Shown here: positions 27,713 through 56,047 of the stretch, piece after piece
Position numbering within the stretch: the stretch's first letter is position 1
How the letters are laid out: each line of letters starts with the position of its first letter
Origin: an uncultured Pseudomonadota bacterium
GTDB taxonomy: Bacteria; Oederibacteriota; Muellerivitia; Muellerivitales; Muellerivitaceae
NCBI GenBank assembly: GCA_963843375.1
Contig: CAWJKT010000004.1
Coordinates: 96,001-160,000 of the forward strand
DNA length: 64,000 nt
Reading direction: 5' to 3'
The notes under the pieces: model-generated
Told to the model about the DNA's origin: nothing
Seen by the model: the letters and a program-made list of their open reading frames with translations, nothing else
Database searches by the model: none
Position numbers and translations under genes: made by a program

Positions 27713-27892
27713 TGGCAGAGCTTGGGATCCTCCTCTGGCGCCGTCTTTTATCCCCTTAAAATAAGCCTTTTCTCCCTTTCCAAAAAAAAATTGGATTAAA
27801 CCAAACCTTTTCCGTCTAGAGGTTGGCGAATATGACGCTTGTCCTTTTTCCCTGAATGCCCATTGGAGATGATGTTTTCGACAGGAGAACGT

Positions 27893-28945
27893 ATGGAACG
27901 AAAATTTTATTTTGAGACGGTGGGATTTGGGATGATTTTGGCGGGGATGGTTCTCACCAGCTGTTCGAGCCACTCCATGTTTCCTACCGCTCCTCCCCCC
28001 CCTTCCATTACCACTCCCACGTTCAGCTCAACTTTCGTCGCATCATTGACACCCTCTGGAACCCCTTCGACAGCCACACCCGTGCCTTGCGTTACCAATA
28101 CGCCCACCGGCACGTCCACATTCACCGTGACGAACACACCCTTTAACACCCCGGCGGTTGACCCGACGCCAACCATTCCAACCGCTACACCGACGCCTTG
28201 TGTTACCAATACTCCGACCAGCACGGCCACATTCACCGTAACGAATACACCTATTAACACCCCCACGATTGACCCGACGCCAACCATTTCAACCGCTACG
28301 TCGACGCCCTGCGTCACCAACACGCCTTCCGAGACCAACACGTCAACTCCGACGAATACCATCTCTATTCAGACGTCCACCAACACACCCACCTGCACAA
28401 TCACGCCCTGCGTTACCGATACCCCTTCACGTACCAACACTGCCACCCCGACGAATACTATCTCTATTCAGACACCCACCAACACACCAACCTGTACAAT
28501 CACGCCCTGCGTCACTAACACGCCTTCCCGGACCAACACACTCACCCCGACAAATACCACTTCTATCCTGACCTTTACGCCTACCGTCACCTTCACGCCC
28601 ACGCTTCATTTCACTAACACTTTTACCGTGACACCAACTTTCAATCCACCCACCTCCACCGCCACCAACACCCCGACCAATAGCCCCTCACCCACTGGAA
28701 CCTGGTACACCTCTACCCCCACGAATTCTCCCACCCTGACCAGCACGGGGTCTCCCACCAACACTGCCACGGTCACCCCCACCCCCACCGTAACGAACAG
28801 CCCTTCCAACACGCCTACTTCCACCGCAACGGATACCGCTACCTCGACTCCGGTCGGGACTTGGTACACCAGCACCCCTACCAATACCCCCACTAACACG
28901 GCCACTCCAACGATCACTTATACGCCTACTCCAACACCCACTTGA
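27893..28945 (+). CDS. Thr/Pro-rich mucin-like lipoprotein with internal repeats
   Basis: RBS AGGAG, lipobox LTSC, then almost entirely TPT-type low complexity with five PCVT(N/D)TP units. Confidence 0.8.
28085..28560 (+). repeat. Intragenic tandem repeats (2 x 111 bp, then 2 x 99 bp plus partial)
   Basis: Cys codons of PCVT(N/D)TP recur at about 28088, 28199, 28310, 28409 and 28508. Confidence 0.8.
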
Positions 28946-43702: not shown

Positions 43703-44484
43703 AACTTTCGGGGCTGCTTTTTTTCCTTACGCTTGGAATATTATTCACCCCGGCTGTTTCCCAAGCGGATGAGGCCTGGCAATCCCCCGATTCCGATACC
43801 TCCCTGGGGCATTTCGCCTCGAAATTTTTTGCCGATATACCCCATCTTTTTATTCCGGACAACGCCGTTCCTTTCTTCGCTGGAAGCTTATTAACCGCTT
43901 CCGATTGGGTTTTTTTTGACCGGCAAGATGATTTGGAGCCCAGTTTAAAAAGTTTGAATATCCAACCGGTATTTGATTTCGGGAATTTTTATGGGGGGGG
44001 ATGGTTGGAAGAGGGAGCCGCTTTGGGAAGTTGGTCCCTGGGTGCTCTTACCCAGAACCTTCAGTTTCAAGAATTCGGTCGGGACGCCTGCGAAACGTTG
44101 GCCGCATCCTTTATTGTTTTGGAAAGCCTGAAAATAGCAGTTAATCGGACCCGCCCGGATGGAAACCCTGATTCTTTTCCTTCGGGCCATTCCATCACGG
44201 CTTTTTGCTTGGCGCCCGTGGTAAACAGATATTTTGGCTGGCAGGTGGGTGTACCCGCCTATATTTTGGCTACGGTAACGGGTTTTGCCCGGGTGGAGGG
44301 CGGTTATCATTACCTGTCCGACGTCATTGCCGGAGCTACTCTGGGGATCGTCATCGGCAACGCGGTGGTTTACGCGCCTAAGGATGTTTCGGTTTCAGCG
44401 GGAATCGGACAAATGAACTTGAAAGTCTGGCTTTTAACTAACCTTTTCCAAGCGGTCCAGCTCCTTTTCGACTTCTTCCATTAG
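43696..44484 (+). CDS. PAP2 family phosphatase (true 3' end probably slightly earlier)
   Basis: KIAVNRTRP, SFPSGH, ARVEGGYHYLSDV. Confidence 0.85.
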   Translation: MLKLSGLLFFLTLGILFTPAVSQADEAWQSPDSDTSLGHFASKFFADIPHLFIPDNAVPFFAGSLLTASDWVFFDRQDDLEPSLKSLNIQPVFDFGNFYGGGWLEEGAALGSWSLGALTQNLQFQEFGRDACETLAASFIVLESLKIAVNRTRPDGNPDSFPSGHSITAFCLAPVVNRYFGWQVGVPAYILATVTGFARVEGGYHYLSDVIAGATLGIVIGNAVVYAPKDVSVSAGIGQMNLKVWLLTNLFQAVQLLFDFFH

Positions 44485-46158
44485 GGGTTCGATCATTTTT
44501 AGGCTGAAATCAAACCGGATGCCCGCGGATTTAAAAATCTCCGGTAAGGGTTGGCTTCCCCCGACGGATAGCCCTTGTTTGTAAAGGCGAACACCCTCGG
44601 CCTTATCTTTCCTAAAATTCTTCCATACTTGAAGAGCCCTAAGTTGGGCGATTCCATATTCGATGTAATAAAAGGGATACTCAAATATATGAAGCTGGCG
44701 GTGCCAAAGATAGGCTTGTACTTCCTCCAAACCATTCCAATCCTCAATACCTCCCAAGCGATGGCGTAAATTCAGCCAATAATCAGACCTTTCTTTTCGG
44801 CTATGGTCGGGATGGGTATAAATCCAATGTTGGAAGGCATCCACGGTGGCGATCCAAGGGAAGTAGGGTAATCACATCTTCCAGGTGGCGGATGGTGGAG
44901 CGGGCCGCTTCCGGGGATTGCATAAAACTCATCCAGGTAAGGATCCGCCATCAATTCCATGCTCATGGAAGCCACCTCACAGAATTCCATGGGTGCGTGG
45001 CGGTAAGGGGAAAAGGAAATATTCCTCCAGGCGAAACTATGCATGGCATGGCCACTCTCATGAAGCAAGGTGCGAACATCGTGATCGAGTCCCACCGAAT
45101 TGGCAAAAATAAAGGGGATTCGGGCCTCTTCCAAATCCACTTGGTAACCTCCAGGGGCTTTTCCTTTGCGGGATTCCAAGTCCAGCAGGCTTAATTCCTT
45201 CATCCGTTTAAAGTTATCCGCCAAAGTCGGGATCAATTTTCGATAATATTTGTTCACATCCATCGACTAGTTTTTCAGTATTTTCAAAAGGTTTTAAGGG
45301 GGCTAATCCAGCCGGATCGACCAAGAGGTCCCATGGCCGTAAAGCGGGTAATCCCATTTTCTTTTTCCGCTTTTCCTGGATTTTGACGACCAAGGGCCGG
45401 ATGGCTTTTTCGGCGCTTTCATGAAAAGCTTCACAATCTTTTGGACCGTAATCAAAACGTTCCTTGCGTCGAAAAATATAATTCCGGTAATCGGGAAACC
45501 CGCGTTTTTGGCGGCTTGGGCACGAATTTTAAGCATCTTGTCGAAGAGTTCTTCAAGGGAATTTTTTTCTTTCAAACGGCGTTCCGCTATCAACTTCCAG
45601 GCTTCTTCCCGTTGAGCCCGGTTGGTGGATTCCAAATAGCGCCCCATTTGTTGAAGGGTTTGCTCTTTGCCCTCGTATTTCACGGTTAAAGCGCCATTTC
45701 GTTTCTGGTATTCCTGGGATAGTTTTTCTAATTCCGTTTCCAACGGGATGTTTTCCTCCCGGTACAAATTTAAATCATTTCCAATAGAGCGGTTGTAAAG
45801 AAAGTAATCTTTCTCCGGAAGTGAAGGGACGGTAAGGGCATTCCCAGTATTTTTTGGAAAGGGCGAAGAATTTGGGTTTGCTTGGCTCCGAGATTTTTTC
45901 AAGGAAATCCAGATAGCTTTTCTCGATATCCGGATCGTCGGTTTTACAGGTCATGCGAACATAGCGGACCGAACCCTCCTCATTCAGGCAATCCTGGAAT
46001 TCTCCTAGGTCCTTCAACCATTTTTCCAAATCTGCGGGATGATAAAAGATTCCGGTTTTGAAGATCCTCAAAAATTTTTTCGACCGTTTCCCAATTTCCA
46101 AGATGGGCTTCCGGCGGAACAAACCGGCGGGGATAGGGATGAGGAAGCGTTTTGGCAT
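44434..46158 (-). CDS. pepF: Oligoendopeptidase F (peptidase M3); many indels
   Basis: Fragments give YVRMTC.TDD, RAQAAKNAGF, DLESRKGKAPGGY, LLHESGHAMH (HExxH), EFCEVASMSMEL, DAFQHWIY, QLHIFEYPFYYIEYGIAQL. Confidence 0.85.
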
Positions 46159-46268
46159 TCAAGAGGGTCATTTCATTTTCCTTTAAGTTATTTGGGAGCG
46201 GGGCACTTTATCAAAAGCTCGTGGGGAAAAAAAGCTGTATGATAAAACCATTATCGGAGGATGATTCC

Positions 46269-46739
46269 ATGCGTTGGGTAACGGTTTTATATATTTTGGC
46301 GTCACTGGTCGGTTGCAATCTTAAGCGACCGGGGCCTTTCCAAGCTCCAAGTCGCGGAAGATCTGGTGTTGGGCATTAATTTGGAAGACATCAAACAGCA
46401 ATGGTTTCTCTATTCCACCAAGGAACTCGTGGTAGACCAATCCATGAGTACCGACTCCGATATCGTCTATCGTGGCGTCAGTCGGGATCCTGCGGTTACG
46501 AGTTTTTATTTTTTTTTCAATTCCAAACAAAGATTCTCCATCAAGTTGAATGGCGGTACCAATCCAGCATGACCGAAGCGAAGGAAAAGGAACTTTTAGA
46601 CTATTGGACCCAAAAACTTTGGAGTCCCTCTTGTCACCAGCGGTGGGATGGCAAGGTTTACGTTTGGGATGATCGAAAAGCCCAATTACAACTTTACTTG
46701 GCGGATGGTATTTGCCATTTGATCCAAAAGTTAAATTGA
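46269..46739 (+). CDS. Hypothetical lipoprotein; frameshifted
   Basis: MRWVTVLYILASLVGC leader, continuing through ORF pieces 46366..46572 and 46401..46739. Confidence 0.5.
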
Positions 46740-46797
46740 ATTCTTTTTAGCTTCCACCTTATTCGACATTTGAGAAAGGGATCGTTATAATCGGCCC

Positions 46798-47831
46798 ATG
46801 ACGATTTACTCTTATTCCCGAATTAATACCTACTTTACTTGCCCCGCCCAATTCCAATTCCGATATATCGAAAAAAGACCCTCGCCCGTGGCGGAAGGGA
46901 TCGAGCTTTTCCTCGGCTCCCGTTTCCATGAGACCATGGAATTTCTTTACCACCAAGTCCCTCAACGAATCCCCACCGTCAATGAGATGGTTGATTACTT
47001 CAAGAACCATTGGGAAAAACATTGGCAACAGTCACTTCAAAAGCAAAGAGACAAAAATTTCAAAGAAACTCTCAGAATTGTTAATGAAGGCCAATCTGCG
47101 GAGGATTATTTCCAAAAAGGGCTGCTTTTCGTCGAAAACTATTACCACCAATACCACCCCTTTGACCAAGACAAGACCGAAGGAATTGAGATCAGGGTCG
47201 CCTTTGACTTGGATTCAAAAGGCCAATATAAGATGCAAGGCTTTATTGACCGATTGGGAAGGGATGACGAAGGAACTCTTTGGATCCACGACTATAAAAC
47301 CAGCTCCCGCAAGATGTCGGAAGAAGACGTCAAGACCGAAGATCAACTGGCCCTTTACCAGATAGGGTTAATTCAGAACCCCAATATGGCGCCAAGGAAA
47401 AGATCAAACTTATTTGGCATTTCGTGGCGTTTGAAAAAGACCAAGTGGTGAGTGAACGTAACCCCAAAGAGATCGGCTGGCTCTCGGAAAAATATATCTC
47501 TAAGATACAGACGATTGAAAAAGCTAAAACCTATCCAACCAAGCCAAGTGTTCTATGCTCCTGGTGTGAATACCTGTCCCTTTGCTTGGATGGCCAACAG
47601 GCGGTGGCCAATCGAAAAAAGAAGCAAGAAAACAAAGAAGTATTAAAGGGAACAACTCCCCCTTCATCGATCACCGAAACTCCAGTTAAGACTTCCTCCT
47701 TGGATGAGAAGACGAAAAACGATTTAATGCCTTTATCTAGTAATACAATTTCAGCCAATAATACGTTTAAATCTAGGGGAAGAAAAAATTCTCATTCAAT
47801 GGTATCTTCAGATCAGTTATCTCTATTTTAA
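46798..47831 (+). CDS. PD-(D/E)XK RecB-family nuclease with four-Cys Fe-S staple; indel near 47390
   Basis: YSYSRINTYFTCP, GSRFH, GFIDRL, IHDYKT, QLALY, CSWCEYLSLC. Confidence 0.85.
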
Positions 47832-48010
47832 ATTTCCTAGCAAATTAATAAGCCAAAATAAAAAATAAGCCAAAAAAACAACACTTTTTCCTAATATCTT
47901 TAAAAACCATATATAAATAAGTTTGAAAAACGGTATTTAAATGCACCCATAAAATATACTAAGAACCATTAGGTAAACGGTTTTCTTAAAATTGCAACAA
48001 AAGAGTCAAG
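47832..48010 (+). promoter_or_regulatory. Very AT-rich upstream region with a 12-bp direct repeat
   Basis: AATAAGCCAAAA at 47847 and 47864, directly upstream of the phcB-like operon. Confidence 0.45.
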
Positions 48011-49429
48011 ATGACGATTTCAGCCGGCAAAAATACTTTTATCACTTGCCGAAATAGCCAAGGAACTGAATTTCGGGCAACTCTCCTTCGCCTGACGCGA
48101 TACGCAGTGGTTTTTGAAGTCTATAATCCTTACAGCATCCTTCAATTATCAGAGGTTTTAACTGATTTTAAGATGATAATGAACGATCGGATCGTTTATT
48201 CCGGTCGGGCAGTCGTCAGCAACCTTTTGAATACCGGAATCCTTCTAGTTTGCGAAGCCACATTGGAAGATTCCTGGTTGGATATTGATGTTTTCTCTTC
48301 AACCCAGAAGGGGGACTGGTGGGAGGCGGAGTTCGCCGAATTTCTCAAAGAATGGGAGAAGGTTCGGCAGGTCCAGCCGGAATTCAAAGTGATCGTAGCC
48401 GACATTCAAACAATGTTAATGGACCTTCGACGCTGGCTGGAACAAGTGGAATTAAGTATTCGTGCAGAGCCGGGAAAGGACCGGCTGAAAATGGAGGTTG
48501 ATATTCTCGAGAATCTCAGGAAACCCGTAATTCCCACGGTGGCTTCCATTTTCCAGCAATTTGAAGAAGCGGCCTGTCAAATTGAAGAAGACCTGCAACC
48601 GGTACATCGTTCTTACGTTAAGCGACAGATCCATTGGTTGATTCTCTGCTCGCCTTTTATTTACCGGACTTTTCAAAAACCCATGGGTTATGCGGGAGAT
48701 TACGAAACGGTGGATATGATTTTCCGACCACCCCATGAGGGTGGGTCGCTTTTCGCCAAAGTATTGAATCTATATATTTTGAGCCGTGCACCAGCGGAAG
48801 CCCACCGAAACCGGGTGAAGTACATGACGGAACTTTTAATCCGGGAGACCCGAAGGGTTGTTCTTCAGGGACGAAAAGCCATCGTCTTGAATTTAGGATG
48901 CGGTCCGGCTCGCGAAGTCCAAGATTTCCTGAAAGAGGACGAATTATGCGAGAAAGCCCACCTAATTTTAGTTGATTTCAATGAAGAAACCCTGTTACAT
49001 GCCGGAAATAACCTAGAAAAAGCCAAAAAAGAAAATAACCGAAAAACTGAAATTGATTTGGTTAAAAAGTCGGTGCACCAAGTTTTAAAAGAATCGATAA
49101 AAGGTTTTGGATCAAATCCCGATGGAAAATTCGATCTCATTTATTGTGCCGGACTTTTTGACTATCTTTCCGATCGAATTTGTAAAAGGCTTATGAATAT
49201 TTTCTATCAGTCCCTCGCGCCGGGTGGGTTTGTTGTGGCTACTAATGTTGACCCTTCTAATCCCATACGATATTTGATGGATTACGTTTTGGAATGGCAC
49301 TTGGTTTATCGAAACGCTGCCCAATTAAAACTTTTGGCTCCGGATGACGCCCCTGCGGATGCTGTTTTTGTAAAATCAGAGGTCACGGGAGTTAATCTTT
49401 TCCTGGAAGTAAGGAAGCCCACCTCATGA
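48011..49429 (+). CDS. phcB: PhcB-like SAM-dependent methyltransferase (3-hydroxy fatty acid methyl ester signal synthase family)
   Basis: RNSQG, EVYNPYSI.Q.SEVL, KPMGYAGDY, AHRNR, NLGCGPA.E, SVHQ.LK, YCAGLFDYLSD, TNV...NP, LEW.L.YR, TGVN.F.E are colinear with Ralstonia PhcB as I recall it. Confidence 0.8.
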   Translation: MTISAGKNTFITCRNSQGTEFRATLLRLTRYAVVFEVYNPYSILQLSEVLTDFKMIMNDRIVYSGRAVVSNLLNTGILLVCEATLEDSWLDIDVFSSTQKGDWWEAEFAEFLKEWEKVRQVQPEFKVIVADIQTMLMDLRRWLEQVELSIRAEPGKDRLKMEVDILENLRKPVIPTVASIFQQFEEAACQIEEDLQPVHRSYVKRQIHWLILCSPFIYRTFQKPMGYAGDYETVDMIFRPPHEGGSLFAKVLNLYILSRAPAEAHRNRVKYMTELLIRETRRVVLQGRKAIVLNLGCGPAREVQDFLKEDELCEKAHLILVDFNEETLLHAGNNLEKAKKENNRKTEIDLVKKSVHQVLKESIKGFGSNPDGKFDLIYCAGLFDYLSDRICKRLMNIFYQSLAPGGFVVATNVDPSNPIRYLMDYVLEWHLVYRNAAQLKLLAPDDAPADAVFVKSEVTGVNLFLEVRKPTS

Positions 49430-52056
49430 AATTTTCAGAATTTTCAGCCCCGTTACGAATCGCATTTATTGAAGAAGAACGACGGGTCCGAATTGCCAAT
49501 TCCAAGGGAGGCTGCTGGCTGGCCATCGTACTCATGCCGGCCGGTTACAGTTTGGATGCGGGTCTTTATCCTGAAAAGGCCCTTCTATTTCTTAAGTTAC
49601 GGCTATTGTGCGCTCTATTAGTCGGCGGTGTCTTGGTAGTCCTTTATACGAAAATAGGACGCCGTTTTTACAAAGTGTTGAGTCAGATCTGGTACATCCT
49701 TCCCCTAATGACCCTTTGTTGGATTATTTACGCCTCCAATGGTTATGCCTGCCCGCATTATTTGGGACTTTATATTGTCCTTTTGGCGGTGGGGTTGATG
49801 CTTCCTTGGACCTACCAGGAAAATATTTTTGCAGGCGCACTTGTCACGACCATGTATGTGGTCGCTTGTTGGCTTCACGGTCCCCATCCTCTTCCAGAAG
49901 AATTTAAATCCCATCTTTACTTCCTGATTCTTACCGACATTATCGTGATCACAGGCAGCTTCTTCCAGGAACGCATCCGTTTAAGTGAGTTTGTTTTAAG
50001 GTTCGAGTTAAATGAAAACAAACAAATGCTGGAAGAATCCAATCGAAAACTCGTAGAAGTCGACCAGATCAAAAACCAGTTTTTCGCCAATATTAGCCAT
50101 GAATTACGAACACCTCTCACCCTGCTCATCGCGCCCTTAGAAATGCTTCGAAGCGAAAAGGCGCATCTTCTAGATCAGGAAGCCCAAGATGTTTTAAAGA
50201 CCATGCAAGAAAATGCTATGAGGCTTCTCAAACTTATCAATGACCTATTGGATATCGTCAGGTTGGAGTCCGGCCGAGTGGAAGTCCGCAAGGAGCCTTT
50301 GAAAATCGAGGAATTCATTAGGGGAGTTGTTCTCTCGGTGCAAGGTGCCGCAAGGGACAAAAGGGTAATGCTTTCCGCCAATATCCAGGAAGGCTTGGGA
50401 ACAGTATTGGCCGACCGGGACATGTTAGAAAAAATTCTTTTAAATCTGATTTTCAACTCGGTGAAGTTTACGCCTTCCCGGGGAAAAGTTGAGATTTCGG
50501 CAATCGTGAAAGAGGGCTTTCTCTTCCTCAAAGTTTTGGATACCGGGATGGGCATTTCGGAACAAGACCTACCGCATATCTTCGATCGCTTCTGGCAGGC
50601 GGACGCTTCTGCCCAACGAAAATACCAAGGCACCGGAATCGGGCTGTCCCTGGTTAAGGAATTAACGGAAGTCCAAGGGGGCACGGTCGCCGCCGAAAGT
50701 CAATTTGGGAAAGGGACGACCATAACCGTAAGAATCCCAGTTGAAAAGACCAGCGAAGTTATCGGTCCAGATGCGCAATTACTTGAACAAAAGGATTCTA
50801 CTCTCATCCAATCCGAGGAGTGGCTTACAAAACTTTACCATCGGGCAGAACTTTTCCCGGCTATTACATCTTTGGCCTCAACCCTGCGTCCGGATGAATT
50901 TGGAAAAGGAAGAGGGCCGAAAGTTCTCATCGCTGACGACGAGCCGGACATGTTGAGATTTTTAAAAACCCAGATGGAAAAATATTATGAGGTCTTAGAG
51001 GCCGTGGATGGTAAACAGGCTGTGGAGAAAGCCCGTCAATTCCTGCCCGACCTGATCATTCTTGACATGATGATGCCGGAAATGGACGGTATCGAGGCTT
51101 GTAAGAAAATCAGGGATTTTAGTACCACTCAGGCGATTCCCATTATTCTTTTAACGGCTAGGGCCGACGATGCCACCAAGCTGGAAGCTTTGAATGCGGG
51201 GGCGAGCGATTTTTTGACAAAACCTTTTTCCAACACCGAATTGCATGTGCGAGTTAAAAATCTTGTGGAATCCTATCAATATCAAAGGGATTTGAGCCGA
51301 CAAAAAAGTGCACTAGAATCGACACTCGAACAATTAAAAGAAACGGAAGGACAATTGGTCCAAAACGAAAAGATGGCTTCCCTTGGGCGTCTTAGCGCCG
51401 GTATCATTCATGAGATTAATAATCCTTTGAATTATGCTCATTCGGCTCTTCATGTGTTGAGAATGAAAAAGGATATTTTGCCTCAGGAGGATAGAGAAAA
51501 ATATGCCGAGGTGGTGGCTGATATCGAAGAGGGCATTGGAAGGGTCGAGCGGATTGTCTCTGACTTGAGGACCTTTACCCATCCCAAATTCGGTGGAGCG
51601 GTGGATTCCGTTGAATTGGAAAAATTAATTTCGACAGCTTTGCGCTTTTTAAGCCACGAATTGAAAGATAAGGTTAGAGTGGATTTAAAAATTCCAAAAG
51701 AACAAATGGTCATGGCGGACCAGAACAAGCTCATTCAAATTTTTGTAAATCTTTTCCAAAATGCTGTGGACGCCCTAAAAGAAAAAGAATTCGACGGCGA
51801 AGAACCTCTTTTATCCATTCAAAGCCGATTGGAAGACGACAAAGTCCTGGTAAACGTCCGGGACAACGGAGCTGGGATCGCCCAGGAAAACCTGGACAAG
51901 ATTTTCGATCCATTTTTTACCACTAAGGACGTTGGTCAGGGTATGGGGCTGGGATTGAGCCTTTGTTATAGATTGATCAATGACCAGGGAGGAAGCATCA
52001 CGGTGAAAAGCGAGCAAGGTAAATTCACCGAGTTTCAATTTGGAAATACCGACTAA
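49426..52056 (+). CDS. Membrane hybrid sensor kinase TM-HisKA-HATPase-REC-HisKA-HATPase (PhcS-like sensor)
   Basis: About 5-6 TM helices, SHELRTPL, N/G boxes (GTGIGL), receiver (ADDE, LDMMMP, LTKP), second H box IHEINNPL and DPFFTTK..GMGLGL. ATGA overlap with phcB. Confidence 0.88.
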   Translation: MKFSEFSAPLRIAFIEEERRVRIANSKGGCWLAIVLMPAGYSLDAGLYPEKALLFLKLRLLCALLVGGVLVVLYTKIGRRFYKVLSQIWYILPLMTLCWIIYASNGYACPHYLGLYIVLLAVGLMLPWTYQENIFAGALVTTMYVVACWLHGPHPLPEEFKSHLYFLILTDIIVITGSFFQERIRLSEFVLRFELNENKQMLEESNRKLVEVDQIKNQFFANISHELRTPLTLLIAPLEMLRSEKAHLLDQEAQDVLKTMQENAMRLLKLINDLLDIVRLESGRVEVRKEPLKIEEFIRGVVLSVQGAARDKRVMLSANIQEGLGTVLADRDMLEKILLNLIFNSVKFTPSRGKVEISAIVKEGFLFLKVLDTGMGISEQDLPHIFDRFWQADASAQRKYQGTGIGLSLVKELTEVQGGTVAAESQFGKGTTITVRIPVEKTSEVIGPDAQLLEQKDSTLIQSEEWLTKLYHRAELFPAITSLASTLRPDEFGKGRGPKVLIADDEPDMLRFLKTQMEKYYEVLEAVDGKQAVEKARQFLPDLIILDMMMPEMDGIEACKKIRDFSTTQAIPIILLTARADDATKLEALNAGASDFLTKPFSNTELHVRVKNLVESYQYQRDLSRQKSALESTLEQLKETEGQLVQNEKMASLGRLSAGIIHEINNPLNYAHSALHVLRMKKDILPQEDREKYAEVVADIEEGIGRVERIVSDLRTFTHPKFGGAVDSVELEKLISTALRFLSHELKDKVRVDLKIPKEQMVMADQNKLIQIFVNLFQNAVDALKEKEFDGEEPLLSIQSRLEDDKVLVNVRDNGAGIAQENLDKIFDPFFTTKDVGQGMGLGLSLCYRLINDQGGSITVKSEQGKFTEFQFGNTD

Positions 52057-52091
52057 AAAATAGAAGGCGAGAAACTTAAGGAGACAAGTTT

Positions 52092-53354
52092 ATGGAAGAT
52101 TTTTATGATTACAAAAAATTTTATGTCCTCTATGTGGATGATGAGGAAAAATCCCTTAAGTATTTCCGGGAAACCTTTGGGGATAAATTTGCCGTTTTGA
52201 CGGCTTCTAACGCCGAGGAAGGTTTCCGCATATTAAAAGAAAATCAGGACCGGATAGCGGTTCTTATGACGGACCAGCGTATGCCCGGGGAAAAGGGTAT
52301 CCAGCTTTTGGAGAAAACCAGGCTAATGAAGCCACGTATCATCCGCATCCTGGTTACCGCTTATTCCGATCTGGAAACGGCCATTGAGTCAGTCAATACA
52401 GGCGCCATTTATAAGTATGTCACGAAACCTTGGGATATACCCCAATTGGAAGTCACTTTAAAACGAGGAATCGAGTTTTTCATCGTACAAAACGAACGGG
52501 ACCAGCTCCTGCGAGAAAAAATATCCACTCTTTACAACGTAATGTTGACGGACCGGATTTTAAGCTTGGGAATTCTGGCAACAGGCTTAAGCCACCATAT
52601 CCGTAATTCTATGGTTGCTGTCAAAACTTTCCTCGACCTCACTCCCAAGAAACTGGAGGAAGAAAACCTCAATTTGGAACAATTGCGGAATCCTGATTTT
52701 TGGAGTGAATATTATAAAAAAGTTCAGAACCAAATGGATAAAGTCGCTCATCTCTTAAGCGATCTTTGGGAGTCATCCGAACTTCCCGTCAACGAGTTCC
52801 CCGATAGGATTAAGTTGAATCAATTATTACCCGAGATCTTTGCCCAGATGAAAAACGAATTGGATCAAAAAGGACTGACCGTGGAAAGCAAACTTTCCAA
52901 CGATCTACCCGAACTGAAAGTGGACGGTAAAAAATTCAAGCGCCTTTTTGAGATGCTGCTCAAGGAAGAAATCTCATCTTTAGTTCCGGGCGGGCGGATA
53001 AAATTTACGGCGCAAGTGACCGGCTCCAAAGAAGGTCCCTCCGAAATTCAATTGGAGATGGAGGACAATGGTCCTGAGTTGGCTTCAGACGCTCTACGAT
53101 CTATCTTTGACCCATTTTTTGTTCGATCCGGTAATCCACAAGAATATGGCATTTATCTTATGTCTTGTTTTTTTATTGTTTATCATCACGGAGGTAGGAT
53201 TTCATCCCGTCATGAAGCCCACAGGGGGAATATTTTTAATTTAACCTTTCCGATCAATCCAACCGTTAGGCGATCTTCCGTTGAGGAAAGGGACTTTGTC
53301 AGCAAGATATTAGTTAATGAAACCATGTGGGAAAAATTAATTTCCGGAAATTAA
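52092..53354 (+). CDS. Response regulator with kinase-like output (REC-HisKA-degenerate HATPase; PhcR/PhcQ-like)
   Basis: LYVDDE, TDQRMPG, ILVTAYSD, YVTKPW, SHHIRN, DNGP, IFDPFF. Lacks canonical N and G2 boxes. Confidence 0.85.
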   Translation: MEDFYDYKKFYVLYVDDEEKSLKYFRETFGDKFAVLTASNAEEGFRILKENQDRIAVLMTDQRMPGEKGIQLLEKTRLMKPRIIRILVTAYSDLETAIESVNTGAIYKYVTKPWDIPQLEVTLKRGIEFFIVQNERDQLLREKISTLYNVMLTDRILSLGILATGLSHHIRNSMVAVKTFLDLTPKKLEEENLNLEQLRNPDFWSEYYKKVQNQMDKVAHLLSDLWESSELPVNEFPDRIKLNQLLPEIFAQMKNELDQKGLTVESKLSNDLPELKVDGKKFKRLFEMLLKEEISSLVPGGRIKFTAQVTGSKEGPSEIQLEMEDNGPELASDALRSIFDPFFVRSGNPQEYGIYLMSCFFIVYHHGGRISSRHEAHRGNIFNLTFPINPTVRRSSVEERDFVSKILVNETMWEKLISGN

Positions 53355-53486
53355 TTAAGGCTTTTGCCCGGGCATAAAACTAAAAATGTTCTCCCCCTTC
53401 ATCGGGAGAAAAAGAGGGATAACCTGCCGTTAAAAGCACCGACAACATTTTTAATGATGAATCCTCTTCTTAATGGTTGCAAAGGC

Positions 53487-55649
53487 TTAAAGAGTTTGAA
53501 TTTTTTCGTGAATGATCTTGTCCAGCGTTTCCTGCAAAGTCGGATTCTTTTCTCCCATCAAGGATTCCAGAAAGCTCCAAACTTGCGGTTGGTTAATCTT
53601 GGTCAAGGCCCGGATAGCCTCCAACCTCACGGGAAGCGAAAAGTTTTTTCCCCGCAATAAGGGCTTTTTTCGCGCGATGTCCTGGAGGAAAGCTATTCCT
53701 TCCGGCATGGCCAAGTCTCCCAAAGATTGGCATACCGAGGTGAGGAAAATATCATTGTTTGAAAAACGCCCCTCGCGGATTTTGGATGCTTTTAAAAGCA
53801 CGGGAAGCCCTGCCGTAAAATGAATCTTGCCGATCACCCTTGCGGCCATGGCTGCAATTTCTTCCGAGTCGTCCAAAACCGCCAGCCTCAGGGCGGGACC
53901 ACCCGCCGGGTCGCCCACTTCCTCAATCAAACCTAGCAGATCCAATTTCAACTCTCGGCTTCCCCTGGAAAGCCAGGCGGAAAGCAGGAGCGAAAGCCCC
54001 GGATCCATGCCGCACACCCTAAGGATCGGCATCAATGGAAGAATATCTTTCTCGTTCTGGACATAGGCCAGCCATTCGGTTAAAGCGGAGCGGACCGACT
54101 CTTTCATCGCGGCGAAAAGTTTTAAATATCCGCTTTTATCGGAAGCGGATGAAACCAAGAAATCATCCAAAAGAAGCGGCGCTGCCATTTCTCCCAGAAG
54201 CGGGAAATGGTCCAGTTGCTCCGCCTTGCAGGCGCTAAGTACAAATCGGCGGATGAGGTCGGGAGTAGAGCGCTCAAAAAGCCAATGCCGGGCGATGTAA
54301 GCCCTCTCCGGGAAGGACGCCACATCCTCATCGGCGTGAAAGTGAAGGGTGGACAAGAGGGTCAGGGCGGATTGTTCATTACCGCCGACCAGCGCAGGCT
54401 CCATCAGGTCCCAAGCCAGCAGAAGGGCGGTTTGGTAAAGCCCGGGAGTCTTTTCCGTGGCTAATAACGCGTTCAAATGATTTAGTACTTCCCGCAGCAA
54501 TTCGGATTGTCGAACCCAGGGGCGGGCATCCATGAGATGGGTCAAAGCCAGTTGTCTTTCAAAAGAATCGCCACTCAAGTTTTGGGCCAAACAATGCACC
54601 GTTTTCTCCACCAACTCCTGTTTTCCGTTAGCTCCCCAATAAGCCAGGCACTCATTCACCAAGCCTTCCGTAGCGGGATCAAAAAGGACAGCCATCCAAT
54701 TGTTCCGAACGGCGACTTCCAACAGTGGATACATAGAGGAAGCTACATGGCCTTGCATCAATTCGCCATGGGGGGTCCGGAACCATTGGTAAATATTTGC
54801 GAATTCAGGAGAGGATTTTTCCATGCGGTCCAAAAGTCGGTCAAATAGTTTTTCAAAAGAAAGGGTCAAATCGGCCATTTCAGGCGAGACGTTCAAGTTT
54901 TTCTTTTGTAATTGAGAATGTTGCCATGCCTCCGCGACAAAGCTTAAAAGCGCCTCACTAGCGCGTGTCTCGGTCTCGGCGGAGGTGGGGACGAAAGCCA
55001 ATGAAATTTTTTCATCCTTCAGAATTTCCTTCAAGGTGAAAGAGGGAACATCCTTGGGTTCGCTAACTGTAGGTTTTGAAGGGGCCGAAAGATCCACGTG
55101 CGGTATAGGAAAAGGTTTTAAGAAGATATCGTTGTTAACCGATTTGTTTTGAGGAGATGAAAAGGTCAAAGGAAGGCCGGTTTTATTTTCCGAAGTTTCC
55201 GGTTCACTCACGACTTTAACCACGTCTTCCTGAGAAAGCATATGGATATGAGGCAGGGTATCTTTATTTTCCTTTTGATCGGAGATCGGTTGTGAAATTT
55301 GCTTCAACCAGATCGTCAGTTCTTCCACCGTCAATCCCTTTTCGATTTGAACTCCTCGGACATTCTTTTCCTGGAAAATTTTCAAGAGATCGTCCCAATC
55401 GGATAAATCGGAGCCGTTAAGGAGAAGCCCATCTGCTTCCCGGTAAAGAGCCAGGGAATCAAAAGCTTGGAGTAGTTTATGGATGTCTTTGTGGCATTTT
55501 TGGACAGCTTGAACTACGAAGGGACTGTCGGTTGAATAAAATGAAACGTAACTGAGGGCTGCCTTGAAATTCCTAGTTAGTTGGGGGAAAGATATTTGAT
55601 GGGCTTGGGACACAGGCTTCACTTGAAACAGGTTCATGTTCTCCTCCAT
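53487..55649 (-). CDS. HEAT-repeat protein, function unknown
   Basis: 720-aa ORF with C-terminal HEAT/PBS-like helices (AVLDDSEEIAAMAARVIGKI, VCQSLGDL, VRLEAIRAL). Confidence 0.72.
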   Translation of the reverse strand: MEENMNLFQVKPVSQAHQISFPQLTRNFKAALSYVSFYSTDSPFVVQAVQKCHKDIHKLLQAFDSLALYREADGLLLNGSDLSDWDDLLKIFQEKNVRGVQIEKGLTVEELTIWLKQISQPISDQKENKDTLPHIHMLSQEDVVKVVSEPETSENKTGLPLTFSSPQNKSVNNDIFLKPFPIPHVDLSAPSKPTVSEPKDVPSFTLKEILKDEKISLAFVPTSAETETRASEALLSFVAEAWQHSQLQKKNLNVSPEMADLTLSFEKLFDRLLDRMEKSSPEFANIYQWFRTPHGELMQGHVASSMYPLLEVAVRNNWMAVLFDPATEGLVNECLAYWGANGKQELVEKTVHCLAQNLSGDSFERQLALTHLMDARPWVRQSELLREVLNHLNALLATEKTPGLYQTALLLAWDLMEPALVGGNEQSALTLLSTLHFHADEDVASFPERAYIARHWLFERSTPDLIRRFVLSACKAEQLDHFPLLGEMAAPLLLDDFLVSSASDKSGYLKLFAAMKESVRSALTEWLAYVQNEKDILPLMPILRVCGMDPGLSLLLSAWLSRGSRELKLDLLGLIEEVGDPAGGPALRLAVLDDSEEIAAMAARVIGKIHFTAGLPVLLKASKIREGRFSNNDIFLTSVCQSLGDLAMPEGIAFLQDIARKKPLLRGKNFSLPVRLEAIRALTKINQPQVWSFLESLMGEKNPTLQETLDKIIHEKIQTL

Positions 55650-56047
55650 GGAGAGATAAAATCAGAACCGTATTTCAAGCGGCAAATCTATAGCATCGTT
55701 GTTCAATCTTCAACACGAAGCTATCACCAATGGAAGAGCTAAAAATAGTGAAAAAGCATTGAAAAAGGGAAGTTCGTTTTCCCGGGTTTTGCAGTTTTAG
55801 GTTTTTTAAAGAGCTTCCTGGAATAAGGTTAATCCTATGGGGCCGCAAGGATTGGTATCCCGATTTCGCTTTTTCCACCAGGAAAGGGGCCTTTTTCAAC
55901 AATTTAATGTAAATTTCCCAAATTATTTTTATCGCCATAGGTTTTTCATTGGTAAAATAAAAGGGCTCAAAAGGGTCTGACCTCTTGATTCATCCCGAAG
56001 CCCAAGGGCAAAATAGAAATAGGTCAGGCTTAACTTGAAGGAGAAAC

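Follow-up and report, generated by a model that had tools for sequence, protein, structure and literature searches.

A Phc-type operon in candidate phylum FCPU426 whose predicted signal synthase and receptor domain probably move between species as one block

In this study, we examined a three-gene operon in a 64,000-nucleotide stretch of DNA (the whole of which we call the window) from an uncultured bacterium (NCBI GenBank assembly GCA_963843375.1, contig CAWJKT010000004.1, positions 96,001 to 160,000) and relate it to the Phc quorum-sensing system of Ralstonia. We consider it probable that the operon is a Phc-type quorum-sensing unit in which the enzyme would make a methyl ester, the adjoining membrane domain of the sensor would bind it, and the two have travelled between species together. 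Our trees show what one would expect of a signal maker and a receptor input that are matched and diversify into signal types, which this pair likely is, and the lineages compared here likely carry distinct 'dialects' of a predicted fatty-acid methyl-ester signal. A preliminary description, made from the sequence alone, had recognised a Phc-type cassette in a host other than Ralstonia. Open reading frames (ORFs) and base composition agree with its outline of a 472-amino-acid methyltransferase, an overlapping sensor and a receiver-kinase-type protein behind an AT-rich spacer, and Phc homology extends to all three genes: gene 1 is 40% identical to PhcB, the membrane domain of gene 2 is homologous to PhcS and the receiver of gene 3 to PhcQ. 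The host, as had been supposed, is distant from Ralstonia; it belongs to candidate phylum FCPU426, remote from Burkholderiales. The features of the operon are as follows.

48011..53354, + strand: three-gene operon (ORF listing; guanine plus cytosine (G+C) content 44%)
48011..49429, + strand: gene 1, PhcB-family methyltransferase, 472 amino acids (ORF listing)
49426..52056, + strand: gene 2, hybrid sensor kinase, 876 amino acids (4-bp overlap with gene 1)
49426..49980, + strand: PhcS-type membrane input domain of gene 2, MASE8-like (5 clear hydrophobic peaks, possibly 6 helices)
49978..50025, + strand: inferred recombination boundary, sensor amino acids about 185-200 (sliding identity)
52092..53354, + strand: gene 3, receiver plus pseudo-histidine-kinase, 420 amino acids (ORF listing)

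The evidence for exchange lies in a conflict between gene trees. Within the host's order, 26 of 32 genomes have the phcB operon, against 0 of 67 elsewhere in the phylum. Of these 26 PhcB-positive genomes, 13 also carry a private fatty-acid synthase set, which none of the 6 negative ones has. This set comprises a ketoacyl synthase (KAS), a chain-length-factor-like protein, an acyl carrier protein (ACP), a dehydratase, a reductase and a phosphopantetheinyl transferase. In 12 of the 13 genomes it shares a contig with phcB and precedes it. All genomes are metagenome-assembled, and each was classed as synthase-bearing or synthase-less before tree building began. The PhcB tree unites the synthase-bearing genomes in one clade (13 rows, support 100/99), and so does the membrane-domain tree (11 rows, 99/97); in the rpoB tree they are interleaved with synthase-less ones, in pairs such as G003/G019 at 100/100. 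A single synthase-bearing clade is rejected by rpoB (approximately unbiased test, p-AU 1e-61; 5.5e-54 without G024 and G031), by gene 3 (1.6e-6) and by the cytoplasmic part of the sensor (4e-7), and PhcB and the membrane domain in turn reject sister pairs of the species tree. The rpoB clade test left out three phcB-negative genomes, the rpoB set was without G004 and G028 and had G001 in place of the broken G000 (the host genome), and the gene-3 trees left out the gene 3 of G011 (a 21% match, not an orthologue). The genes on either side of the operon, both outside the circuit, supply a local reference.

46798..47831, + strand: left flank, PD-(D/E)XK nuclease-like gene (marks the common insertion site)
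47832..48010, no strand: intergenic spacer, 179 bp, 75% A+T, probable promoter region (base composition)
53487..55649, - strand: right flank, HEAT-repeat protein, 720 amino acids (tracks the species tree)

The right-flank tree follows the species tree and rejects the PhcB/membrane-domain tree. G003 and G019 occupy the common site and share a right flank at 100/100, and their sensors are 39-50% identical before the boundary and 62-98% after it. For G002 and G006 the sensor is 80-82% identical before the boundary and 43-68% in kinase 1 and the linker. G002 and G028 are sisters in both flanking genes; as sisters they are rejected in PhcB (1e-11) and in the membrane domain (8e-5). The window's own module groups with G002 and G006 (97/93 in PhcB, 100/98 in the membrane domain), and among these groupings, which were chosen after the trees had been seen, window plus G002 plus G006 is rejected by rpoB (0.006) and window plus G002 by gene 3 (0.001). 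Within its own type the window lineage sits on long branches (0.44 in PhcB, 0.72 in the membrane domain), and its membrane domain replaces residues that are near-constant across the family. Pairwise identities from 14 of the 26 genomes (leaving out G031 and genomes lacking any one domain) give the same picture, in that PhcB correlates with the membrane domain (rho 0.76; 0.79 after removing rpoB), the membrane domain is uncorrelated with rpoB (rho 0.02) and the cytoplasmic part correlates with it (rho 0.63). From the trees, the sliding identity and the correlations together, we infer that everything from the spacer up to the membrane domain's end has been exchanged as a block, on top of a relay that was inherited. 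The evolutionary evidence for signal types that are matched and exchangeable is strong. As in pherotype systems, the receptor gene contains the boundary, and its input part varies together with the maker and not with the species tree. A comparable split is described for the R. solanacearum complex, where PhcB and PhcS divide by signal type and PhcR and PhcQ by phylotype (PMC8578825), and phcB and phcS are described as showing signs of balancing selection (PMC6580516).

Since the private synthase set accompanies phcB in half of the positive genomes, the substrate of the methyltransferase is pointed to as an acyl chain. The host genome (80% complete) holds no private synthase, with no match for its ACP or phosphopantetheinyl transferase, and the sister genome (99% complete) likewise lacks it, with the same result for the chain-length factor. 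A copy elsewhere in the host genome was considered and rejected, only housekeeping-level matches of 27-43% being found. Among synthase-bearing loci (L038, L039, L044, L047, L049, L050, L133 and L134), optional tailoring genes vary; they encode a short-chain reductase and a flavin oxidoreductase, the latter lying between phcB and the sensor in L049. The four reductase-bearing genomes cluster together in both the PhcB and the membrane-domain trees, which suggests signal sub-types. Outside FCPU426, three loci with a long-form sensor (L126, L129 and L131) have a ketosynthase match some 5-6 kb upstream, which in L129 and L131 is part of a very large ORF; this is possibly a second way of coupling a dedicated acyl source.

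The family itself extends well beyond this order. PhcB-type proteins fall into 1440 clusters (50% identity) at an expectation value (E) of 1e-30 or better, partial matches included, and named members come from Verrucomicrobiota, Chloroflexi, Tepidisphaeraceae and many Burkholderiales. Close strains of the host occur in soil runs from two studies and in one lake-water run; the listed holders include no RNA run. A conjugative plasmid of Paraburkholderia graminis (L002:7971-12346) carries phcB, phcS, a short receiver gene and phcQ, so a Phc system can be plasmid-borne.

Gene 1 aligns end to end with the PhcB of Ralstonia sp. R-29 (40% identity over 457 amino acids). Reference proteins came from metagenome loci and received their names through exact look-up (PhcB and PhcS of Ralstonia sp. 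R-29, PhcQ of R. mannitolilytica and of Cupriavidus), with PhcR references assigned from operon position. Among the matches listed, many of 120 homologues bear the Joint Genome Institute (JGI) name for a biosynthesis protein of methyl 3-hydroxypalmitate (3-OH PAME), and 87 columns are invariant over 26 FCPU426 and 8 Burkholderiales enzymes. A change of Arg22 in PhcB is described as lowering signal production in Ralstonia (PMC6989110); this residue, its numbering here inferred from alignment, is kept in gene 1 and nearly invariant across 148 sequences. Gene 1 does not fall inside the clade of characterised PhcB enzymes; a 168-row FastTree phylogeny with midpoint root puts it in an FCPU426/Verrucomicrobia-type clade apart from the Burkholderiales enzymes, with a branch length of 0.94 from the gene 1 clade to the side that holds them. 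By sequence, gene 1 is thus a PhcB homologue outside the characterised clade, and we predict it to be a signal synthase.

Structurally, the predicted model of gene 1 (predicted local distance difference test, pLDDT, 89) consists of an N-terminal domain with six strands, followed by a helical stretch and a class I S-adenosylmethionine fold, in line with a Pfam methyltransferase match at amino acids 292-406. Its best structural match is 3ocj, an uncharacterised Bordetella protein (Z 20.8, root-mean-square deviation 2.9, 251 aligned); a sequence search of solved structures with gene 1 returned nothing significant (best E 0.04). The structural matches were confined to the methyltransferase region, mostly to small-molecule methyltransferases, so that these searches hardly probed the N-terminal domain:

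48035..48265, + strand: N-terminal all-beta domain of the synthase, amino acids 9-85, PilZ-like (six strands in the model)

For this domain all 10 of 10 named atlas matches are PilZ, at a score of 0.84 that is below the tool's reliable range. Pfam gives no PilZ match for it, and the cyclic-di-GMP arginine motif is not visible ahead of the domain. Of 15 homologues scanned, Pfam places PilZ at the equivalent stretch in one (P0477) and ahead of that stretch in 5 others. We therefore offer the PilZ-like assignment as a lead only, based on the model. A complex prediction of the synthase with gene 3 scored 0.00 and was uninformative.

The sensor had been described as a multi-transmembrane PhcS-type kinase overlapping gene 1, and in its membrane domain and overlap this is borne out, but it is no simple PhcS. 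Gene 2 is a hybrid in which the membrane domain is followed by kinase 1 (His225), a receiver (Asp547) and kinase 2 (His662), with what we take to be the catalytic motifs looking intact. The membrane domain is 31-37% identical to that of PhcS (E 1e-26 to 3e-34) and has an atlas score of 0.95 for MASE8; the Pfam MASE8 model matches weakly in 2 of 6 membrane domains scanned and not in the window's. We predict it to be the ligand-binding part. Kinase 2 is 41% identical to the PhcS kinase and kinase 1 only 23%, so Ralstonia PhcS corresponds to gene 2 minus kinase 1 and the receiver. Gene 2 is accordingly a long form, and the PhcS layout, in which the membrane domain leads directly onto one kinase, is absent from it. 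Among 80 metagenome loci, 53 have the short form, 13 the long form and 14 are cut or lack a sensor. On the 168-row PhcB tree the short-form rows lie in one clade and long forms on either side of the midpoint root, a suggestion, from a tree without an outgroup, that the short form may be derived from the long one. The best NCBIfam match of the cytoplasmic part is LvrA (NF047465), at 294.7 bits against a curated cut-off of 1200.

Gene 3 does join a receiver to a kinase fold, as the preliminary description held, but its ATP-binding motifs are lost, and its receiver and linker are nearer to PhcQ (46-47% identity, E about 1e-43) than to PhcR (38%, about 1e-26). Receiver Asp61 and kinase-fold His168 are kept, and the catalytic Asn and the glycine loop of G2 are gone. 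Across FCPU426 gene 3 proteins the His is kept in 16 of 17, and none of the 17 has the acidic residue next to it, the Asn or the G2 loop; the motifs concerned are the H-box, N-box and G2 of the kinase fold. By its motifs, then, the C-terminal part of gene 3 is a pseudo-kinase. Arg155 aligns with PhcQ Arg154, which is invariant in 51 of 51 aligned proteins, and a PhcQ R154C mutant is described as resembling a deletion (PMC6989110). The same source terms the C-terminal half of PhcQ uncharacterized (PMC6989110). A direct profile match of gene 3 to PhcQ covers the linker (HH probability 92.8 over 46 columns), the C-terminal part of gene 3 being the longer. An indirect link runs from gene 3 at full length to six intermediate proteins (98.5) and from those to the PhcQ C-terminus (89.7, 171 columns). 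This suggests that the PhcQ C-terminal half may be a further decayed kinase fold. In a model of Cupriavidus PhcQ (pLDDT 91), a small alpha/beta domain comes after long helices, an arrangement compatible with a shrunken kinase fold; both structure searches with this model were filled by receiver matches, leaving the C-terminal half unprobed. A PhcR search of the 80%-complete host genome found nothing better than the receiver of gene 3.

As to how the circuit might work, the methyltransferase would turn an acyl chain into a diffusible methyl ester, which the adjoining membrane domain would bind. In the host the acyl chain would probably come from housekeeping fatty-acid synthesis, because its genome lacks a private synthase. 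Ligand binding would probably switch kinase 1 at His225, which would phosphorylate the internal receiver at Asp547 and so control kinase 2 at His662. Kinase 2, as the counterpart of the PhcS kinase, would then phosphorylate Asp61 of gene 3. Lacking normal ATP binding, gene 3 would probably act in the manner of PhcQ, through partner binding or by passing phosphate via His168. All of these steps beyond homology and module exchange we infer. PhcQ is described as acting on PhcA by protein contact (PMC13320629). The preliminary description saw no PhcA-type LysR regulator in the window, and near the operon this is borne out: none of the 16 proteins scanned at 42605-63937 matches the LysR family, and genome-wide LysR searches place no match on contig C4. 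LysR N-terminal matches number one in the 99%-complete sister and two in the host genome; the full-length protein (290 amino acids) is nearest to GltC, AlsR and CynR models, below their cut-offs, and was compared by length only with PhcA, which has 347 amino acids (PMC8578825). P. phytofirmans is listed with phcBSRQ and without phcA (PMC3639386). The circuit thus probably has an output of its own, as had been proposed, and the best candidate for the partner of gene 3 would be a degenerate NtrC-type regulator module on contig C6 of the host genome:

G000:C6:158577-161808 (L132:6578-9809): NtrC-type three-gene module, candidate output (regulator, small soluble kinase, degenerate receiver protein)

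The degenerate receiver protein of this module shows the same range as phcB by count (26 of 32 genomes of the order, 0 of 67 others), and in 9 of the 26 genomes the phc or synthase genes have at least one module gene no more than about 10 kb away, in two arrangements, downstream or upstream. The AAA+ domain of the regulator is without the sigma-54 contact loop or normal Walker motifs, as we take these motifs to be, in 7 of 7 aligned proteins.

Several findings weigh against the reading of the operon as an exchanged Phc-type signalling unit. On the side of the signal, no solved structure points to the substrate, and identity to characterised enzymes is only about 40%. On the side of the relay, there is no PhcR orthologue, gene 3 being without an intact kinase domain, and no recognisable PhcA; the receiver tree, which left out one fused ORF and duplicates, gives gene 3 a clade of its own, split from PhcR at support 63, and does not place it as a PhcQ orthologue. 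The C6 module is unlinked to phc in the host genome and is present in 3 of the 6 PhcB-negative genomes of the order. As to exchange, a synthase-bearing clade survives the test against the left flank (p 0.10, 3 rows), as does the window's own group against the cytoplasmic part (p 0.07). Genome G024 has two phcB copies (L027:8718-10200 and L023), one synthase-bearing and the other a 5' fragment that lies at the common site and lacks the synthase; over 66 conserved residues this fragment is 98% identical to the G002 type. The presence of both copies reflects either a step in module exchange or an error of binning. Given these two copies, duplication with loss or mis-binning can explain some tips.

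Such considerations lead to the proposal that the system is Phc-like but that the tree conflict reflects hidden paralogy, mis-binned contigs or convergence. The genomes are indeed metagenome-assembled, and to the copies in G024 can be added G030, whose synthase and phcB lie on different contigs, and the short contig of G029. We nevertheless think this improbable, as the switch occurs inside one gene on one contig; the G003/G019 pair combines a common site and right flank with cytoplasmic windows up to 98% identical and a membrane domain at 39-50%; PhcB and the membrane domain reject a sister relation of the flank sisters G002/G028; and the results persist when G024 and G031 are removed. Another possibility is that the methyltransferase modifies the sensor protein in the manner of CheR and that the two co-evolve through contact. 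Weak Pfam matches to the CheR family, seen on 4 of 15 longer homologues and precomputed on a few close ones, could be read this way, and co-evolution by itself cannot separate a common ligand from a common interface. However, the presence of the private fatty-acid synthase follows the same tree as well, it is the membrane-embedded domain that co-varies, and the best structural matches are mostly small-molecule methyltransferases, so we hold such protein modification to be very improbable.

Two further readings accept a lipid product. The circuit may make the Ralstonia signals themselves, methyl 3-hydroxypalmitate or 3-hydroxymyristate, and be capable of cross-talk with Ralstonia. The end-to-end homology, the columns invariant between FCPU426 and Burkholderiales enzymes and the close strains in soil runs would suit this, and where a private synthase is lacking, housekeeping 3-hydroxy acyl chains would be the natural substrate. 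Yet the enzyme sits in a separate clade, the membrane domain shares only 31-37% identity with PhcS, and the window's branches are long (0.44 and 0.72), with near-constant membrane-domain residues replaced; even within the R. solanacearum complex, some strains are described as unresponsive to the other type's signal (PMC13532016). We regard production of the Ralstonia signals as unlikely, if the least so of the alternatives. Of the preliminary proposals, cross-talk with Ralstonia finds no support here, and a volatile product stays a supposition. Somewhat less likely again is a metabolic monitor, in which the enzyme would methylate an internal or environmental lipid and the sensor would read the product in the same cell. 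Control by internal state is suggested by the PilZ-like domain on the enzyme and by extra PilZ or receiver domains on some homologues, but the signal of the characterised homologue is extracellular, and repeated exchange of a matched enzyme and receptor better fits diversifying social signals, as in the ComQXP pherotypes (PMC4408185). We therefore keep to a predicted Phc-type quorum-sensing unit.

With regard to the locus itself, the spacer at 47832..48010 occupies the slot that private fatty-acid synthase genes take in synthase-bearing relatives at the same site. It contains no sigma-70 consensus match, promoter and terminator scans were at chance level, and the upstream regions of 7 relatives show poor conservation of the spacer and no clear common motif; an Rfam search of the window gave no match. 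Contigs of the host genome range from 43 to 58% G+C, against 44% in the operon. The first 22 kb of the window have 58-72% G+C and the remainder about 40-56%, and the terminal 100 kb of contig C4 about 68%. The contrast could come from an island or from chimeric assembly of the contig; relatives share synteny with the part that contains the phc locus. At 27839-28945, a 368-amino-acid ORF runs over 99-111-bp tandem repeats with strong C-over-G skew, which probably encode Thr/Pro-rich linker repeats.

Contigs from independent sequencing runs cover parts of the operon at 99-100% identity. Position 52039 is one base that is absent from the contigs of two runs, so the last few residues of the sensor are probably an assembly slip. 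The left-flank gene is split near 47379 here and unbroken in the sister genome (locus L022), which is probably a one-base slip of assembly too. Single-base differences from the run contigs fall at 44429, 44856, 45216, 45307, 46036, 47379 and 52039. These differences explain a broken M3 peptidase and the split PD-(D/E)XK gene, which look like assembly slips rather than pseudogenes. In runs X6 and X7, operon fragments within window positions 44000-56000 are 99-100% identical and flanking fragments about 83-93%, among the pieces shown and with no bridging contig; this could reflect two strains in the sample or a recent transfer of the whole operon.

In earlier accounts, Phc signalling is called genus-specific (PMC8578825) and listed for Burkholderiaceae only (PMC3639386). 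A literature search for phcB with Verrucomicrobia and quorum sensing found no report; judged by titles and the starts of abstracts, a scope outside which subscription papers on signal specificity lie, no Phc system is described outside Burkholderiales; and by title, no signalling study appears among the FCPU426 matches listed. A Phc-type system widespread in an order of another phylum, with natural enzyme-receptor swaps, supplies cognate and non-cognate pairs ready for comparison. Through them one can learn how receptors discriminate lipid esters and can uncover new signal molecules, and the C-terminal half of PhcQ gains a testable identity. More speculatively, and only as a tentative proposal, the Phc systems may form a widespread lipid-ester language in which dialect cassettes (the synthase, an optional private fatty-acid synthase with tailoring enzymes, and the receptor input domain) are exchangeable and the window's lineage has a new dialect. 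In the same proposal the long relay would be the older one and PhcS a shortened form, the C-terminal half of PhcQ would be a decayed kinase, and the output would be sigma-54-independent and NtrC-type rather than PhcA.

To place this circuit among known systems, it is useful to separate its parts. In ComQXPA of Bacillus and agr of Staphylococcus, the variable part ends inside the receptor gene. These systems resemble ours in setting a polymorphic maker-receptor block on a conserved downstream relay (PMC4408185, for comQXP), and differ in having peptide signals and no sequence homology; exchange in our case is between species and genera. The relay is closest in layout to LvrA/LvrB of Leptospira, where a kinase-receiver-kinase protein is followed by a receiver-kinase protein and there is no DNA-binding domain, although LvrA takes its input through PAS and is soluble, the kinase of LvrB is active, and no methyltransferase is mentioned in the accessible part of the source (PMC5863495). 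For gene 3 we draw a likeness by fold description only. The pseudo-histidine-kinases ChpT and DivL have a kinase fold without working ATP binding, with the His kept in ChpT; gene 3 differs from them in its N-terminal receiver. By far the fullest comparison is with phcBSRQ of Ralstonia, Cupriavidus and Paraburkholderia, whose signals are 3-OH PAME and methyl 3-hydroxymyristate (3-OH MAME). Gene order is alike, as are the synthase (38-40% identity), the membrane domain (31-37%), the kinase (38-41%) and the PhcQ-like receiver and linker (46-47%), and there too synthase and sensor are described as grouping by type instead of species (PMC8578825). On the other hand, in our operon a further kinase and receiver separate the membrane domain from the PhcS-type kinase, a single receiver/pseudo-kinase stands in place of PhcR and PhcQ, and no PhcA is recognised; half of its relatives add a private fatty-acid synthase, the phylum is another, and its product is a prediction. 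Judged by its genes, it is a Phc-like circuit in a distant phylum and not phcBSRQ proper.

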